This document shows positions 7,757 through 50,823 of a DNA stretch of 64,000 nucleotides, in pieces. The notes under the pieces are model-generated. The model worked only from the letters and a program-made list of their open reading frames with translations, did no database searches and had not been told where the DNA came from. The number at the start of each line of letters is the position of its first letter. The stretch's first letter is position 1. The DNA comes from an uncultured delta proteobacterium. GTDB taxonomy: Bacteria > Desulfobacterota > Binatia > Binatales > Binataceae. Where the stretch lies: contig CAVWMQ010000008.1 in assembly GCA_963756155.1 (NCBI GenBank), forward strand, positions 23,240-87,239, given 5' to 3'. The translations under genes were made by a program, and so were the position numbers.

Positions 7757-8065
7757 CTGATTAGCTACCTGCGGCTATTCCCGATTCGCGTTCTTGCAGG
7801 AATGTATGTTTCCAATCGATATCCGGCCGTCGAGCTGTCAACTTGCCTTCCTTTGATAGCTGCCACGACGTGAGCCCGAAGCGATCCGCGTTCTTGGAGA
7901 GTACGTAACCGGGGTGCAGGCTGCCAGCGCTGACGATGCTCCGACTTTTGAGAGAAGCGCCTCAAGGTTCGGCTTCGGACCCCAGGAATTCTGATTTTTG
8001 GGCTTGCAATTGGCACACCATTTCTACTACCGTGGGTAATACTACTGGTGTGGAGGAAACTCGCC

Positions 8066-8290
8066 ATGAGCGTTGCAAAATTATCGGTCTCACTTCCCGA
8101 CTCGCTGGCCGGGTTTGTCGAGGGTTATCGCAAAAAGCGCGGCCTGAAGAGCCGCTCCCAGGTCTTCGAGGAAGCGCTCAAGCTGCTCAGAAGCCAAGAG
8201 TTGGAGGCAGCTTACCGGGAGGCGGACTCCAAACACGACAAGGCCTGGGACAATGCGCTGTCGGACGGGCTGAGCGATGAGACGTGGTGA
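8066..8290 (+). CDS. type II antitoxin, ribbon-helix-helix/MazE-like
   Basis: MSVAKLSVSLPDSLAGFVEGY...RSQVFEEALKLL; GGAGGA RBS 8 nt upstream of ATG 8066; overlaps the downstream toxin by 14 nt. Confidence 0.6.
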   Translation: MSVAKLSVSLPDSLAGFVEGYRKKRGLKSRSQVFEEALKLLRSQELEAAYREADSKHDKAWDNALSDGLSDETW

Positions 8291-8612
8291 AATATACTAC
8301 GCCGACCTGGGCCCTACGATCGGCTCCGAGATCAACAAACGCCGGCCGGTGCTGATTGTCAGCAACGAAGCGAATAATCGTGCCGCGAGCACGGTGACCA
8401 TCCTGCCAATCACCTCCAATGTGAGCCGGATATATCCCTTCGAGATTCCACTTTCGCCAAGAGACAGCGGCTTACCCAGACCTTCGAAGGCACAGGCGCA
8501 GCAGATTCGCACCATCTCCAAGGAACGCATCCGAGGCGATGCGGTGGCGCGACTCGGGGCGATCCCGATGCGCAAGGCGGCCGATGCGATGCGTCTTCAT
8601 CTAGACCTGTAG
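8277..8612 (+). CDS. mazF: type II toxin, MazF/PemK family endoribonuclease
   Basis: MRRGEIYYADLGPTIGSEINKRRPVLIVSNEANN...VTILPITS: canonical PemK/MazF motif. Confidence 0.8.
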   Translation: MRRGEIYYADLGPTIGSEINKRRPVLIVSNEANNRAASTVTILPITSNVSRIYPFEIPLSPRDSGLPRPSKAQAQQIRTISKERIRGDAVARLGAIPMRKAADAMRLHLDL

Positions 8613-9943: not shown

Positions 9944-10020
9944 TGGCGCGCCCGGAGGGATTCGAACCCCCAACCCTCAGATCCGAAGTCTGATGCTCTG
10001 TCCAGTTGAGCTACGGGCGC
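9944..10020 (-). tRNA. tRNA-Arg (anticodon TCG), CCA encoded
   Basis: Reverse complement GCGCCCGTAGCTCAACTGGACAGAGCATCAGACTTCGGATCTGAGGGTTGGGGGTTCGAATCCCTCCGGGCGCGCCA folds as a cloverleaf. Acceptor 7 bp, D-arm GCUC/GAGC, anticodon stem UCAGA/UCUGA, loop CUUCGGA with anticodon UCG, T-loop TTCGAAT. Confidence 0.85.
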
Positions 10021-21015: not shown

Positions 21016-21795
21016 ATGCGCGCGAAGCACCCGATCCGGAAACTGCGGGGACTCAGGAACATTTCCTGGCTCGACGCGCGCAAGCTAGAGCGCCTCGCGG
21101 CGGCGCTCACCGTGAGCGAGGTGGAAAAGCGCGGCGTCATTTTCGACGACAAGCACTCCGAAGAATCCGCATACGTGCTCCTCACCGGAGTCGCGCGCAT
21201 CTCATGCCGCAATCGAAAGGGTCAGCGCACCCTGGTAATCATGGTCGCACCCGGGATGATTCCCGGCCTTCCACCTCCGGTGCTCGGAATCAGCTACAGC
21301 TTCCGTTGCGAAGCGGTCACCGATTGTAAAGTCGGGACCATCGATCTGGATACGTTCATCGAGATTTCCCTGGGAATCACTTCTGTTGATTTCAAGCGGA
21401 TGGCCGCCAGCTATTCCGGACGATGGGATCTGGTTCAGTTGCGATGCTCAAATTTCATGAGCTGCACGCTCGAGGAGCGGCTCGCGCTGATCCTGATGGA
21501 ATTGAGCGACAACTTCGGCGAACAGGATGGCGGCAACGGAGTGCTCCTGTCGGTGAACGTCCGCCACAAGGATATTGCGGAGCTGGTGGGAGCCTCGCGC
21601 CCCCGGATCACCGAGCAGCTCCTCCGATTTGAGCGCAAGCACATGATAGCGCGGGAGAATCGCCATCTGGTGGTAAAGCGCGATCGTCTCGAGAGCTTCC
21701 TCAACGCCACTCACGTTCTGGAGTCCGGTTCCAGAGCGTCCGGTTCCAGAGCGCGGACCAACGGCGCTAAAGCGAGCAGAAGTTTGTCATCGTAG
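21016..21795 (+). CDS. Crp/Fnr family transcriptional regulator
   Basis: cNMP-binding beta-roll then C-terminal HTH HKDIAELVGASRPRITEQLLRFERKHMI. Confidence 0.75.
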   Translation: MRAKHPIRKLRGLRNISWLDARKLERLAAALTVSEVEKRGVIFDDKHSEESAYVLLTGVARISCRNRKGQRTLVIMVAPGMIPGLPPPVLGISYSFRCEAVTDCKVGTIDLDTFIEISLGITSVDFKRMAASYSGRWDLVQLRCSNFMSCTLEERLALILMELSDNFGEQDGGNGVLLSVNVRHKDIAELVGASRPRITEQLLRFERKHMIARENRHLVVKRDRLESFLNATHVLESGSRASGSRARTNGAKASRSLSS

Positions 21796-22014: not shown

Positions 22015-22728
22015 TTGAATGCAACGAAGAACCCGCATGACACCGACCTCGACAGGCTGAGCCGGCTTCAGGCTTTGTCCTGGCTCTCCTCCACAGAGCT
22101 TTCAATGCTGGTGGCAGCGCTCGCGCTGTCCAACTTCAAGCGGCGAGAAGTGATCTTGCGCGCCGCCGAGCTCGCCACCCAGGCACACATTCTGTTGGCC
22201 GGCATCGCACGCATCACCTGCCTAAGTGCCCGCGGCGAGCGTGTCACTGTGGCGATGCTTGCGCCGGGTCCGATACCGGAATTTCCCGCACTTCCGATGA
22301 GCCAATCCGACTTCCGCTGCGAGGCTTTCAATGACTGCCGGGTCGGCAGCGTGAGCTGGGAAGATCTCGACGGCATCACTGTGAATGCCTCCGAATCGGC
22401 ATTCAAGAAATTCCATCAGAACGATCTGAAGCAATGGTATCGGCTGCTGCTCCGCAGTTCGAGCTCCTTGAATCTCGGTCTTCACGAACGGATCGCGATG
22501 ACCCTGCTGGAATTGTGCTCGGACTTTGGGATCGAGGAATCGCGCGGCACTCTGCTGCGAGTATCTTTCAGCCACAAAGACATTGCCAATCTGGTCGGAG
22601 CCTCGCGGCCAAGAGTCACGGAACATCTTGCGCAATTGGAGCGCGAACGATTTGTGGTCCGTCAGGGACGTCAACTCGTCGTCCGCGTGGGCAAGCTCTG
22701 GGACTCGATGACGGTGCATGCCGCCTGA
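22015..22728 (+). CDS. Crp/Fnr family transcriptional regulator (tandem paralog)
   Basis: Same architecture; HTH HKDIANLVGASRPRVTEHLAQLERERFV. Confidence 0.75.
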   Translation: MNATKNPHDTDLDRLSRLQALSWLSSTELSMLVAALALSNFKRREVILRAAELATQAHILLAGIARITCLSARGERVTVAMLAPGPIPEFPALPMSQSDFRCEAFNDCRVGSVSWEDLDGITVNASESAFKKFHQNDLKQWYRLLLRSSSSLNLGLHERIAMTLLELCSDFGIEESRGTLLRVSFSHKDIANLVGASRPRVTEHLAQLERERFVVRQGRQLVVRVGKLWDSMTVHAA

Positions 22729-23050
22729 GGAAAAACTCTTCCAATCGGAACTCGCGGTAGCTAAAATTAGCGGCGCTGTCGAGGAGCAACGACCGGGGGC
22801 GCTGAAGTCGTAAGGCTAGATCGCCGGGCAACGGCTTGGCAACGTCCGACGTCATCCTCGGCATCAGCATCGGAACTTCGCGCATTGAACGAAGGGAGGA
22901 GGAACCTCAATGCGGAGCGAAAGTTGACCGGTCGATCTTTACTCGCCTGATTGTATGAAATAAGCATCGGTGCGTCGGGCGCGGGGCCCGGCCTCGGTCT
23001 CAATCGTGAGTGCTCGTTCGGGGGGCTCACCAGAAAAAGGAAGGTCGATC

Positions 23051-23749
23051 GTGCGAAGAAAAATCGGGATACACCTGCTGTGGATCGCGATGCTGGCGAT
23101 GGTATCGGGCTGCTCATCCTGGACGCCTCAGCAAAGGGAATACACCGCCTATGGAGCAGGCGGCGGCGCACTGCTGGGCGGTGGGCTGGGATGCGGAATT
23201 GCCGCGGCCACCGCAGGTCGCGGTCACGTGGGCGTGCAGGGCGCAGCTGCCTATGAGATCGGATGCCCCGTCGGCGTTGTGGCCGGCGCTCTCATCGGCG
23301 GCACGGTTGGCTACCTGATGGCGCCGAAACCGGTGCCGCCTCCGCCGCCACCACCACCTCCTCCGCCGCCACCACCTCCGCCGCCACCTCCGCCACCGCC
23401 GCCGCCACCGGAGAAGATCATTCTGCGCGGCGTGCACTTCGACTTTAACAAGTCGAACATTCGTCCGGGCGACGCTGCGGTGCTTGATGAAGGCGCGGCA
23501 ATCCTGAAGGCGCATCCGAATGTGAACATCAACGTGGACGGATACTGCGACGCCATCGGAAGCGAGAGGTACAATTTGAGGCTCTCCGACCGGCGCGCCA
23601 ATTCAGTGGTCAGGTATCTGGCTGGACAGGGGATTGCGGAAAGCCGCCTGATCCCGCACGGCTACGGCAAGACCAACTTCGTCGCACCGAACGACACGGC
23701 AGAGGGACGCGCGCAGAACCGCCGCGTCGAACTGGTGCCGCTGGAGTAG
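23051..23749 (+). CDS. OmpA family lipoprotein with glycine-zipper and 27-residue polyproline linker
   Basis: GTG 23051 with AGGAAGG RBS; lipobox LAMVSGC; GGGALLGGGLG glycine zipper; 27 consecutive Pro (ccg/cca run 23338-23418). OmpA_C: NFDFNKSNIRPGD...LSDRRANSV...AQNRRVEL. Confidence 0.85.
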   Translation: MRRKIGIHLLWIAMLAMVSGCSSWTPQQREYTAYGAGGGALLGGGLGCGIAAATAGRGHVGVQGAAAYEIGCPVGVVAGALIGGTVGYLMAPKPVPPPPPPPPPPPPPPPPPPPPPPPPPEKIILRGVHFDFNKSNIRPGDAAVLDEGAAILKAHPNVNINVDGYCDAIGSERYNLRLSDRRANSVVRYLAGQGIAESRLIPHGYGKTNFVAPNDTAEGRAQNRRVELVPLE

Positions 23750-23783
23750 CGCCGGGCTGACAAGTGCCTACTGAGTGAAGAGC

Positions 23784-23820
23784 GACCAGGTTGACGAGCC
23801 ATCGGCTCGTCAACCTGGTC
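23784..23820 (+). terminator. 17-bp perfect hairpin downstream of ompA-like gene
   Basis: gaccaggttgacgagcc-atc-ggctcgtcaacctggtc; no U-tract. Followed by a perfect 15-bp tandem duplication caacctggtccgcat x2 (23811-23840). Confidence 0.45.
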
Positions 23821-23880
23821 CGCATCAACCTGGTCCGCATCAATTGCGCTAGGCCCGTGTACGGCTTGGAGAATGCGGCC

Positions 23881-24393
23881 GAACTTGAGAAGCCGCGCCT
23901 ACGCTTGGTGGGATGTGGCTGAAATCGAGAGGCCGTGCCTACGCTTGCTGGGATGCGGCCGAAATCGAGAGGCCGTGTCTACTCCTTTCGGGATTCGGCT
24001 GAAACCGAGAGGCCGTTGTCCCCGGGATGCGGTCGAAATCTAGAGGCCGTGCCTGCTCCTTCTGGGATGCGGCTGAATCCGAGAGACCGTATCTACTTTT
24101 GCGGGATGTTGCTCGAATTCGAGAGACACCTCTACGGCAGGCAGGATGCGGCTGATTCGAGAGGTTAGGTCTACGGCCGGCGGGATGCGGCTGGACTTGA
24201 GAGGCCACCTATACGGCAGGCGGGATGCGGCTGATCCCATAGGGCGGCGGTCTACGACGGGCGGGATGCGGCTGAACTTGAGAGGCCGCATCTATGCCTC
24301 GGGGATGCGGGCGAAATCGCGCGTAGGGCTCCGTCCCCGGCTGGGGATGCGGGTGAATTTTGGAGGGCGGGTTCATGGAGAATGGGCGCGGGC
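23881..24393. repeat. non-coding tandem repeat array, about 12.5 units of 39-42 bp
   Basis: Unit consensus GAAATCGAGAGGCCGTGCCTACGCTTGCTGGGATGCGGCT. Units start at 23881, 23921, 23961, 24001, 24035, 24075, 24115, 24154, 24193, 24233, 24274, 24313, 24355. The period is not a multiple of 3, so it is not protein-coding. Confidence 0.8.
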
Positions 24394-24613
24394 TTTTCCA
24401 CCTCCGGCAGAGCGCGATCGTGGTCATTTCCCCGCGCTTGATTGCGCTGATTAGTGGTACTCATTTGACTGCGATCGTTGCGCGGCCTTACACTTAATTT
24501 GTCGGCATCGACATACGAATCGGGTCCGGCTTTGATCCAGCTCGACAGTGGCCCTTCCGCTCGCCTTTGACCACCTTCTCGCTAGACCAACCTGAATTGT
24601 AAGTGACCAAGGC

Positions 24614-25033
24614 TTGTGGAGGTCCTTCATGGGACACTCTGGGCCGATGCGTACGTGGTTTCAGCCCGAGCGCTCGATCGAGCTGCCCGCGCTTTCCAAC
24701 GAAGCTGTCTCGAGACTGAGCATGTTGTGCGGCCTGGCGGCGGCGGAAGTGTTTTCAATCTACGCCGTCTTCGTCGCGCACGCGCTGATGCCGGTGCAGG
24801 TCTTCATGGTCGACCGGCTCACCAATCGCATCCTGGTGCCCGGCTCGATCGGCAACCTCGAGGAAGTCTTCAACTGGAACGGGCTGCTTCCCTGCTTGCT
24901 GTTCACATCGATTACTTTCACCTTGACCTGGTGGACAGTTCGCTGGGCCACTTCGATGCCGGTGAGTCCAGCCGCCGCACCTCTCGATAGCATTGAGACA
25001 ATAGCCGGCCGTCTGGCGATCGTGAGCGAATGA
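24614..25033 (+). CDS. hypothetical protein
   Basis: Only an ORF with one hydrophobic segment; no recognisable domain. Confidence 0.25.
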   Translation: MWRSFMGHSGPMRTWFQPERSIELPALSNEAVSRLSMLCGLAAAEVFSIYAVFVAHALMPVQVFMVDRLTNRILVPGSIGNLEEVFNWNGLLPCLLFTSITFTLTWWTVRWATSMPVSPAAAPLDSIETIAGRLAIVSE

Positions 25034-25080
25034 CTAATCGAGTTACTACCGAAGAAAATCAACTGGCTACAGGAAATAGT

Positions 25081-25338
25081 ATGAAATCCACATTAGGCAT
25101 ATGGGCTGTGCGATCGCTGGCCGCGCTTTCACTTCTGACTATTGCCGGATGCTACTCCGGATGGCGCGGCAACGACGCCTACAATTCAAGCTCGCGTTCC
25201 AACTGGAACCACAGCGATCAGCAATCCGAAGACTGGAAGGTGAACCGCGACAGCGGGGATCGCGCCGGCGCCGTCGCTGACCGCAACCCGGAATATTCCG
25301 CGGACTACTCCGATCGCTACTACCGCGACGTCAACTGA
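25081..25338 (+). CDS. small hypothetical lipoprotein
   Basis: MKSTLGIWAVRSLAALSLLTIAGC signal peptide plus lipobox; D/S/R/Y-rich mature part. Confidence 0.35.
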   Translation: MKSTLGIWAVRSLAALSLLTIAGCYSGWRGNDAYNSSSRSNWNHSDQQSEDWKVNRDSGDRAGAVADRNPEYSADYSDRYYRDVN

Positions 25339-30977: not shown

Positions 30978-31418
30978 TTAACGCTCGTCGTGATTCACTT
31001 TGTCGGCTGCCGCATGATTCTCGGCCGGTGCACGGTTGACATGAGGCTCGGAAGTGGTGCGAGTCTCGGGAACAGCGCGGCGTTCCGGCGCGACCGCACG
31101 CTCACGCTCTGGCGCGGCCGCCACGCGAACACGCTCCGGGGAGACCACGCGCTCGTTTTCGACCACGCGCTCACGCTCGTTGGTCACATAGACGTTGGAC
31201 GGAGCGGCGTAACCGGGAGCATAGCCGTATCCGGGGGCATAGCCGTATCCGGAACTGTAGGCCGGTCCCGATTCATATCCGGGACTGTAGGCAGGTCCCG
31301 AGGCGTATCCAGGTCCGCCGCCGTAGTAACCTCCGCCACCGCCATAACACGCTTGCAGTGAGACCATTCCCAACAGCAGCCCCGCCGCCGTAGATATACG
31401 AACTATATTGCTCCTCAT
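30978..31418 (-). CDS. Gly/Tyr-rich low-complexity lipoprotein
   Basis: MRSNIVRISTAAGLLLGMVSLQAC lipobox, then (G)nYYGGGPGYASGPAYSPGYESGPAYSSGYGYAPGYGYAPGY and ERERVV repeats; GAGGT RBS before ATG 31418. Confidence 0.5.
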   Translation of the reverse strand: MRSNIVRISTAAGLLLGMVSLQACYGGGGGYYGGGPGYASGPAYSPGYESGPAYSSGYGYAPGYGYAPGYAAPSNVYVTNERERVVENERVVSPERVRVAAAPERERAVAPERRAVPETRTTSEPHVNRAPAENHAAADKVNHDER

Positions 31419-49109: not shown

Positions 49110-50646
49110 TTAAAGAACCGCGCCCACGACCCTGCCCTGGAGATCGTAGCTGAGAGCTTTTTCGATTCGCGCGCGCACGAATTCGCCCGGCTCGGCGTCG
49201 CCAGCAAGGAACACCGCGCCGTCGATATCGGGCGCCTGTCCGGAGGTTCGCCCGCGCATTCGCGTGGCGCGTCCGGGCATCGGGCCTTCCACCAGAACCT
49301 CGAGTTCGCGGCCGACCAGGTCGCGGTTCTTCTTCAACGAAATTTCCGCCTGCATGCGCATTAGCTCGGCGCGGCGCGCGCGCTTGACGCGCTCCGGCAC
49401 CTGACCCGCCATCTCGAAGGCGGCGGTATTCTCCTCGCGCGAGTAAGTAAACACGCCGAGGCGGTCGAATTGTTCCGCGCGCACGAAATCGACGAGCCGA
49501 TCGAACGCCGCATCGGTCTCGCCGGGAAATCCGACGATGAATGAGGTGCGCAGCGCGACGCCCGGGATGCGCGTGCGCACGCGCTCGAGCAGCCGGCGGA
49601 GTGCCGCGCCGGAGCGCTCGCGGCGCATCGCGCGCAGGATCGCGTCGTCGGCGTGCTGCAGCGGGATGTCGATATACTTCACGACCTGGGGAAGCTCGGC
49701 GACCGTGTCGAGCAGCTCGTCGGTAACGAAGTTCGGATAGCAGTAGAGCAGCCGGATCCAGCGAATGCCGGCGACCGTCGCAAGCTCGCGCAGCAGCTTC
49801 GCGAGCGAAACCGCCGGCCTCAGATCGCGTCCGTACGCGGTAAGATCCTGCGCTATCAAATTGAGCTCGCGGACACCGTCGCTGGCCAGTTGGCGGGCTT
49901 GGGCGACCAGGTTGCCAACGGGGCGACTTTCGTGGCGGCCGCGGATTTTCGGGATGATGCAGAAGGCGCAGCTGTGATTGCAGCCCTCCGAAATCTTCAA
50001 GTAAGACGTGAAGTATTCGCCGAGCCGGACCCGCGGCGCTGCCGCATCGGGCAGTAAATGAGCCGCGCCTGCCGATGGAATTGGGCGATTCTCGAGGTTC
50101 GCCGCGCCTGCACGATGGGATTGGGCGATTTTCGAAGTTTGCCGCGGCTGCATATGGGATCGAGCGATTCTCGAGGTTTGCGGCGCCGGCGAACAGAATC
50201 CGCCTGTCCTCGATGTGCGACGCGTTTGCGTATGCGATTGGGTGGTCTTTGAGGTGGGCGGCGCCGGCGTAGGGGATTGCGCGGTCTTCGGGGGACTCGG
50301 TGCGGCGGAGGAGCTCCGGCAGGTCGAGGAAGTTGCCGGTGCCTACGAAAACGTCAACCTCTGGCAACCTGTCGCGCAGCTCGGCGCCGTAGCGTTGCGA
50401 CAGGCATCCGGCGACCACCAGGCGTTTGCCGTGCCCGCGCTTCTTGACCGCCGCAGCTTCCAGGATCGCGTCAATGGATTCCTTCTTGGCGGCTTCGATG
50501 AACGCGCAGGTGTTCACGACGAGCACCTGCGCCGCCTCCGGGTCGAGCGTGATCTCGAACCCTGCGCTGGTGAGCGCGCCAAGCATCAACTCGCTGTCCG
50601 CCAGGTTCTTGGGACAGCCGAGAGTGAGGAGATGAACGGTTTCCAT
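49110..50646 (-). CDS. rimO: ribosomal protein S12 methylthiotransferase RimO, interrupted by an internal tandem repeat expansion and an apparent +1 frameshift
   Basis: MTTase N-domain (METVHLLTLGCPKNLADSE...VVNTCAFI...VVAGCLSQRYG) in frame of track ORF 49105..50694. Radical-SAM CNHSCAFCIIP plus TRAM domain in frame of ORF 49110..50153. Frames switch inside a 39-bp repeat block at 50040-50300. Confidence 0.7.
50041..50300. repeat. about six units of a 39-40-bp tandem repeat inside the rimO linker (13-aa units)
   Basis: Units such as gccgcgcctgcacgatgggattgggcgattttcgaagttt, encoding DRAIPYAGAAHLK/DHPIAYANASHIE/DRRILFAGAANLE/NRSIPYAAAANFE/NRPIPS. One unit is 40 nt (ccatcgt instead of ccatcg/ccatat). 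Confidence 0.7.
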
Positions 50647-50823
50647 GGCTATGTCAGGATTTCCGAGGGAGTCTACTTGTACTCGCCATGTCAAAACGAC
50701 GCAATCGGGTGTGCCGCAGCGGACGTTCCAGGCGTGTTACTTCCGGAACAAGAAAAACTCGCGGCTGATCGATTATCCACAGGCGATGGGCTGAGGTCTC
50801 CAATTTCAAGCTAAACTCGTCAC

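Follow-up and report, generated by a model that had tools for sequence, protein, structure and literature searches.

The E. coli REP consensus reads GCC(G/T)GATGNCG(G/A)CG...CTTATC(C/A)GGCCTAC, and a REP family normally comprises hundreds of dispersed copies. Orientation alternates in BIMEs, which are clustered REPs, and in REPINs, which are inverted REP pairs, and clustered units of the REP, BIME and SMAG kinds are thought to stabilise the upstream mRNA. Mycobacterial MIRUs also form a dispersed family, with about 40 loci per genome, some of which have small ORFs. The sopC centromere of plasmid F consists of 12 direct repeats of 43 bp; each unit contains an inverted repeat that is bound by SopB, and the array lies beside sopAB on the plasmid. 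For RNAs that bind CsrA, the SELEX consensus is RUACARGGAUGU and the repeat of CsrB is CAGGAUG. Stem-loop repeat families have been surveyed in PMC2267715, and PMC4596501 describes BrickBuilt, a minisatellite-containing MITE of Porphyromonas gingivalis: its units are 23 nt long, its leader and tail subunits have ends that are inverted repeats, and it is present in 19 copies per genome and shows promoter activity.

Here we analyse a tandem array of about 40-bp units in a 64-kb stretch of DNA from an uncultured bacterium of the Binataceae (the whole stretch is referred to as the window). The array lies between an ompA-like gene, which ends at 23749, and a 134-aa gene, which starts at 24629, both on the + strand. 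The features of this region are as follows.

23051..23749, + strand: OmpA-family lipoprotein-like gene with a poly-proline linker (Pfam OmpA PF00691, E 3.5e-22)
23784..23820, + strand: perfect 17-bp inverted repeat with a 3-nt loop (arms 23784-23800 and 23804-23820; inverted-repeat search)
23810..23843, + strand: 15-bp direct repeat in 2.3 copies (TCAACCTGGTCCGCA; Tandem Repeats Finder, 100% match)
23851..23860, + strand: predicted 5' arm of a split intrinsic terminator (AGGCCCGTGT; collinearity with the sister species, folding)
23870..24383, + strand: minisatellite of 13 direct units of 34-42 bp (unit cutting, Tandem Repeats Finder, unit profile)
24328..24363, + strand: strongest late hairpin, at the unit 12/13 junction (GCTCCGTCCCC-GGCT-GGGGATGCGGGT, then GAATTTTGG; folding)
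24384..24399, + strand: partial 14th head, predicted 3' arm of the split terminator with its T tract (GGGCGCGGGCTTTTCC; alignment, pairing)
24465..24494, + strand: promoter-like site TTGACT-18-TACACT, for the downstream operon (consensus match only)
24629..25033, + strand: 134-aa gene of unknown function (gene call in independent assemblies)

Cutting the array at the GGGATGCGG anchor gave 13 complete units at 23870-24383, all head-to-tail on the + strand, followed by a partial 14th head, GGGCGCGGGC, at 24384-24393. A preliminary description of this DNA had placed 12.5 units at 23881-24393, which is a fair count of the same array (23870-24393) in a register shifted by 11 nt. The unit lengths in order are 40, 40, 40, 34, 40, 39, 40, 39, 40, 41, 39, 42 and 40 nt; the period of about 40 bp given earlier therefore stands, but because unit 4 is 34 nt long the true range is 34-42 bp rather than 39-42 bp. 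In each unit, the head (GGGATGCGGCY) is joined to the tail by a link (GAAATCGAGA). The conserved 25-nt core that had been noticed, GGGATGCGGCTGAAATCGAGAGGCC, was borne out by 7 occurrences at no more than 3 mismatches, compared with 0.00 expected from 100 shuffles. What had been called a variable 15-nt segment is indeed a looser tail, but it is not random: CTAC is kept in the tail of 8 of the 13 units, and two tail subtypes can be distinguished, GGCCGTGCCTACGCTTGCT in units 1-6 and GGCCACCTCTACGGCAGGC in units 7-10.

Tandem Repeats Finder, which had been suggested as a check, recovered the array with a period of 40 (72% matches, over 23873-24125 and 24101-24285) together with higher-order periods of 74 and 79 (80-86% matches). 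A profile built from the units matched 13/13 of them; pairwise identity between units was 52-85%, and the most decayed units were the first and the last two, at the array edges. Each reading frame meets a stop codon within about 3 units, and ORFs crossing the array on either strand had no homologue among billions of predicted proteins. With a period that is no multiple of 3 and a copy number that varies between strains (see below), the earlier reading of the array as a non-coding minisatellite was upheld.

A layout of repeat plus variable segment is also that of a CRISPR, and the array could be taken for a degenerate or orphan one. The 'spacers', however, would be only 9-17 nt long and share CTAC and other positions, the 'repeats' are just 52-85% alike, and Pfam scans of about 57 candidate ORFs detected no cas domain in the window. 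The preliminary description had named a true CRISPR with nearby cas genes as one of the findings that would overturn its reading, and the short, partly shared 'spacers' and the missing cas domains speak against it. We regard a CRISPR origin, together with the assembly artefact considered next, as practically out of the question.

We found the same units in five independent metagenome assemblies from different samples (L160, L161, L162, L164 and L172), which were recovered by exact-protein look-ups for the same species; L160, L161, L162 and L172 are 97-99% identical to the window at the nucleotide level. Since five independent assemblies carry the same units, the array is not an assembly artefact, which the preliminary description had still allowed for. 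The contigs L160, L161 and L162 start inside the array, whereas L172, obtained from another sample and with an overall identity of 97.6%, spans the whole array. The array is also a place at which short-read assemblies break: the starts of L160-L162 and L164, and the end of L172, fall within it or at its end. As a separate observation, four Logan contigs representing independent short-read assemblies of the same species (L001 and L125-L127) all begin at 24545-24549, so that their common breakpoint lies about 150 nt after the array and not at the repeat.

Copy number among related strains, a comparison proposed at the outset, was found to differ, with 13 units in the window and 11 in L172. The latter is without exactly units 3 and 4 (74 nt, a clean difference) and has four further small indels, and in L164 a single unit resembling unit 3 stands in place of units 9 and 10 of the window. 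Closely related strains have gained and lost units in blocks of one or two. The junctions implied by these copy-number differences share only about 9 nt, so their collapse by a de Bruijn assembler would be unlikely. Between the window and L172, the 536-nt array region showed 2.40% substitutions and 5 gap events, compared with 0.38% and 1 gap event in the 3.4-kb upstream flank and with 0.8-0.9% and no gaps in the 3-kb downstream flank. The substitution rate of the array is about six times that of its flanks, and the array is under relaxed constraint.

We then searched for further copies of the unit. Using the unit profile (nhmmer --max), no other unit was detected on either strand of the 64-kb window or in further same-species contigs, about 95 kb of the genome being covered in total (64 kb plus about 30 kb). 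Rfam contained no match for the array, and the spurious ORFs that sister arrays would produce were sought among predicted proteins with no hit on either strand. Genome contigs were scanned for three occurrences of GGATGCGG at 36-43-bp spacing, a loose pattern that returned at least 120 loci; none of the matches listed fitted the unit profile, and all of these were unrelated, for example hexamer coding repeats in Erwinia. In metagenome contigs, a scan for GGGATGCGGCNGAANNNGAGAG turned up no array but 32 single matches due to chance, in a collection that apparently holds no samples containing the organism of the array, and searches of viral, plasmid and phage sequences returned nothing similar. 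Diverged relatives would escape the metagenome and viral scans, in which the degenerate core had to be matched exactly. The preliminary description had considered that the units might be absent from the rest of the genome and from relatives, the region being an artefact; they do lack a counterpart elsewhere in the window and in one relative (L165, see below), but the inference of an artefact did not hold.

The window contains further tandem repeats. A second minisatellite with 39/40-bp units is located at 50062-50290 within a rimO/miaB-type methylthiotransferase gene (- strand, 49110-50694), where it encodes about six copies of a 13-aa repeat with a consensus close to IPYAGAANLENRP in the linker that joins the UPF0004 domain to the radical-SAM domain. 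Membership of this array in the same family was rejected, as 94/500 and 177/500 shuffles scored as well against the consensus of the first array. In the window, an extra base at 50112 places the N-terminal domain and the radical-SAM and TRAM part in different frames. A contig that is 99.2% identical (L173, taken from a 148-kb ENA contig of ERZ25039605) encodes an intact 511-aa RimO with the repeat in frame, and the frameshift of the window therefore either arose by mutation in the strain or reflects a sequencing error. Exact-protein look-ups directed at the first array in that 148-kb contig did not retrieve it. At 31208-31310, in or near a 123-aa ORF with no Pfam match, there are further tandem repeats with lengths of 18 and 30 bp (CGTATCCGGGAGCATAGC and the like); their minus strand resembles a Gly/Tyr-rich coding repeat.

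The locus was also compared with that of a sister species. Orthologous loci were located via the 134-aa downstream gene, and the locus obtained in this way (L165) has about 78% nucleotide identity to the window, with 69% amino-acid identity between the downstream protein orthologues. L165 keeps the flanking genes and the upstream hairpin of the window. Its alignment extends up to 23837 and resumes at 24450, and between these points L165 has 75 nt where the window has 612 nt. The 75-nt stretch contains a single intrinsic terminator, AGGCCGC-N18-GCGGCCT followed by TTTTCC, with a folding energy of -24.4 kcal/mol. When units 1-13 are removed, the window is collinear with this single terminator, and the reconstituted junction forms a 10-bp stem followed by TTTT (-16.8 kcal/mol). 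The partial 14th head with its T tract (24384-24399) aligns with GGGCTGCGGCCTTTTCC of L165, and in the minimum free energy fold of the array-only + strand the arms at 23851-23860 and 24386-24395 pair around the whole array. Given that the two arms flank the array, pair around it and are collinear with L165, the minisatellite occupies the loop of the predicted terminator of the ompA-like gene. The array appears to be absent outside the species, a statement that rests on a single comparison because L165 is the only sister-species locus.

We also considered whether the unit derived from the terminator hairpin itself. The position fits, and by eye the unit tail resembles the left arm of the terminator and the unit head its right arm. 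However, a profile of the rotated unit detected neither L165 nor the reconstituted junction, and in comparisons of the flanks with the unit 152/1000, 885/1000 and 230/1000 shuffles scored as well. The sequence similarity is thus non-significant, and this derivation was kept only as a possibility.

Upstream of the array, the perfect 17-bp hairpin and the 15-bp duplication mentioned in the preliminary description were both present. The hairpin at 23784-23820 has no T tract and is also found in the sister species, with a folding energy of -37.8 kcal/mol in both. Between the window and L165, three stem positions have changed on both sides (A-T to G-C, T-A to C-G and C-G to T-A). In the 15-bp repeat, the end of the hairpin's 3' arm occurs a second time, which makes an alternative pairing of 23784-23794 with 23825-23835 possible, and this second copy is also kept, in diverged form, in L165, where hairpin and repeat together lie at 536-600. 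As the hairpin has no T tract, it may be a conserved RNA or DNA element of its own, for instance a processing or protein site, or else a non-canonical terminator.

For the ompA-like gene, the start at 23051 agrees with that of the 231-aa gene called in L172, the frame being open from 22970. In its translation, a lipobox-like VSGC is present and a long CCN repeat at 23335-23410 gives rise to about 28 consecutive prolines. Among named homologues the best is 'OmpA family protein [Candidatus Binatus sp.]' with 67% identity, a single annotation that makes the Binatia the probable affiliation of the organism. The protein search returned no close copy (at least 90% identity) of this protein, while the complete gene is present in L172; the missing copies are probably due to the proline CCN repeat and the array. 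In related Binatia-like contigs (L167-L170), three or four tandem paralogues of this OmpA-family poly-proline lipoprotein gene are located beside uvrB, whereas in the window a single ompA-like copy precedes the array and the operon downstream is a different one. These contigs were rejected as orthologous sites, as they carry tandem paralogue clusters in another context without the 40-bp array.

The 134-aa downstream protein had no Pfam match, and only two protein clusters related to it are known, at 99% and 69% identity; its gene is the first of three small genes ahead of a TetR/HlyD/ABC operon. The remainder of the window is core chromosome, with his genes, aroA, prmC, ftsK, lolA, rimO, dksA, RNase J and ssb. 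Among about 57 of its candidate ORFs scanned with Pfam there were no cas, transposase, partition or replication genes, and the sole 'ParA' match is an Mrp/NUBPL-type ATPase 23 kb from the array. Elsewhere in the window, a PemK/MazF-type toxin gene at 8277-8612 is preceded by an 80-aa ORF that is probably its antitoxin, and this toxin-antitoxin-like pair (span 8048-8612) adjoins a tRNA gene at 9947-10020.

This context bears on whether the array is a set of protein-binding sites at the DNA level, as the preliminary description had suggested. Examples would be a sopC-like centromere, iterons, or operators for two Crp/Fnr-family regulators encoded upstream. The regular layout of 13 units of about 40 bp with a conserved 25-bp core would suit such an array, and two Crp/Fnr-type regulator genes are indeed located just upstream (21016-21795 and 22015-22728). 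Yet the units share no palindrome or Crp/Fnr-like dyad, unit 7 being the only palindromic one, and the array follows a gene and precedes the T tract of a terminator instead of occupying a promoter region. There are no partition or replication genes in this core chromosome context, no plasmid or phage record is similar, and the array is variable between strains and absent from L165, which retains both flanks. We therefore consider binding sites of this kind very improbable.

We next evaluated the folding of the array. The array-only + strand folded with a z-score of -3.0 against dinucleotide shuffles, none of which (0/100) folded as well, while the - strand showed no excess folding (z +0.6). 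Two local pairings were distinguished. In the first, the tail of a unit pairs with the head of the next (GGCCGTGCCTA with TGGGATGCGGCC) over up to 11 bp plus a bulge, giving -10 to -19 kcal/mol at 9 of the 14 junctions. In the second, a shorter stem is formed across the link (CGGCY-N10-GGCCG), giving hairpins of 5-8 bp with -4.7 to -11.7 kcal/mol in 11 of the 13 units, the exceptions being unit 8 (-2.8) and unit 13 (-0.3). Both pairings need G.U pairs, which are present only on the + strand. Summed over the units, the hairpins reached -160.8 kcal/mol compared with -130.7 kcal/mol in shuffles, with few units below a z-score of -1.5, and RNAalifold across the units gave no convincing common structure. 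A string of stem-loops along the array transcript is accordingly a plausible but weak prediction, because the per-unit hairpins are only modestly more stable than those of shuffles and the RNAalifold result is unconvincing. The hairpin at 24328-24363 had an energy of -16.9 kcal/mol and formed in the same way within 24320-24405; it may act as a substitute terminator.

The second pairing allows the array to be read as clustered REP-like elements, such as RAYTs (REP-associated tyrosine transposases) mobilise. Each unit would then be a short imperfect palindrome, CGGCY-N10-GGCCG, followed by CTAC, so that the minus strand presents GTAG and a hairpin. The minus strand of 8/13 units does read GTAG followed by GCACGGCC-loop-GGCCGCATCCC, and the small link hairpins of 5-8 bp in 11/13 units, the unit length of 35-40 nt and the site just 3' of a gene, the usual REP position, fit as well. 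The unit also bears a resemblance to the E. coli REP consensus, with GGATGCGGC and GCCTAC at similar spacing. On the other hand, there is no second locus on either strand of the 64 kb or in the other same-species contigs, 13/13 units are direct on the + strand, and no Y1 transposase or RAYT domain was found in the approximately 57 candidate ORFs scanned. The stems are moreover short, and their G.U pairs become A.C mismatches on the GTAG strand, which is the one without excess folding. REP-like elements are thus an unlikely explanation, although a little less so than the other alternatives.

The excess of structure on the + strand and the regular RGGAUG motif could mean that the RNA does something, for example as a CsrB/RsmZ-like protein sponge or regulatory RNA in which 11-13 RGGAUG motifs, one per 40 nt and ended by a terminator, titrate a CsrA-like protein. 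The array holds 11 GGATG and 15 GGA motifs, about one per unit, and ends in a T tract; significant structure is confined to the + strand. At the junction of units 7 and 8, the sequence is GCAGGATGC, which may be set beside the CsrA and CsrB motifs given above. In the most stable folds, however, in which a tail pairs with the next head, GGAUG lies within the stem, and only the weaker fold leaves it in a linker. A promoter scan of 22800-25100 returned no site in or upstream of the array, the sole match being that at 24465-24494, which is outside the array and after the terminator, in a region conserved in L165. The array had no Rfam match, is absent from L165 with both flanks kept, varies in unit number and changes faster than its flanks. 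No csrA gene was found in the window either, a weak point since the window is a small part of the genome. The earlier suggestion of an sRNA-generating locus finds no backing in the Rfam search, the promoter scan or conservation, and we judge a sponge or regulatory RNA to be improbable.

We conclude that the array is probably a lineage-specific, non-coding minisatellite (VNTR). By analogy with other bacterial minisatellites, it would have expanded, and would still be changing, by replication slippage or unequal recombination between units; the 74- and 79-bp periods are consistent with units having been duplicated in pairs. The array would be transcribed as the 3' tail of the ompA-like mRNA, with the transcript ending either at the T tract at 24394-24397 or at the hairpin and TTTT of the unit 12/13 junction, and its RNA would form a string of modest, G.U-rich stem-loops. 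Any REP-like effect on 3' end stability or termination would be incidental at most. The array appears to have no dedicated function; there is no nearby partner gene, no further copies were found in the window or the collections scanned, and judging from L165 it is not conserved beyond the species.

A more far-reaching interpretation would make the array either a very young functional RNA that titrates a CsrA-like or other RNA-binding protein, or the first REP-like family in Binatia, organised in direct arrays. As a functional RNA, the array could act from the 3' tail of the ompA-like mRNA or from a fragment processed out of that mRNA, through its small hairpins and its 13 RGGAUG motifs at even spacing. 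The dose would then be tuned between strains by the number of units, and a sponge RNA would have been newly born from amplification of a terminator region. We give this interpretation little credence.

Read as a minisatellite, the array is another case of hairpin-rich 3' intergenic DNA ballooning into tandem repeats and carries little biological weight. The empty site survives in L165 and places the expansion inside a predicted intrinsic terminator. Should the array affect termination or make the ompA-like mRNA more or less stable, the expression of an envelope lipoprotein could be modulated by unit number. The locus also offers a ready-made VNTR strain marker for an uncultured soil lineage.

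Compared with known systems, the array resembles the REP and BIME elements known from Enterobacteria and pseudomonads, and the SMAG elements known from Stenotrophomonas, in having extragenic units of about 35-40 nt at a 3' gene end, with a possible stem-loop and, in 8 of the 13 units, GTAG/CTAC beside it, but it differs from them by its lack of dispersal, its direct orientation, its weak stems and the absence of a RAYT gene in the window. It is similar to sopC in the number and length of its direct repeats, but has no dyad and no partner genes and is chromosomal. With BrickBuilt it shares species-specific, intergenic short direct repeats without true spacers; unlike BrickBuilt, it is single-copy, has no inverted-repeat ends or target duplication and interrupts a predicted terminator. 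In contrast to the MIRU family, only one locus of the array is known, and it is located inside a predicted terminator hairpin. Like the bacterial intergenic minisatellite or VNTR loci used in MLVA typing and the mycobacterial MIRUs, it consists of direct repeats of tens of bp between co-directional genes, with imperfect units, changes in whole-unit steps and a copy number that differs between close strains.
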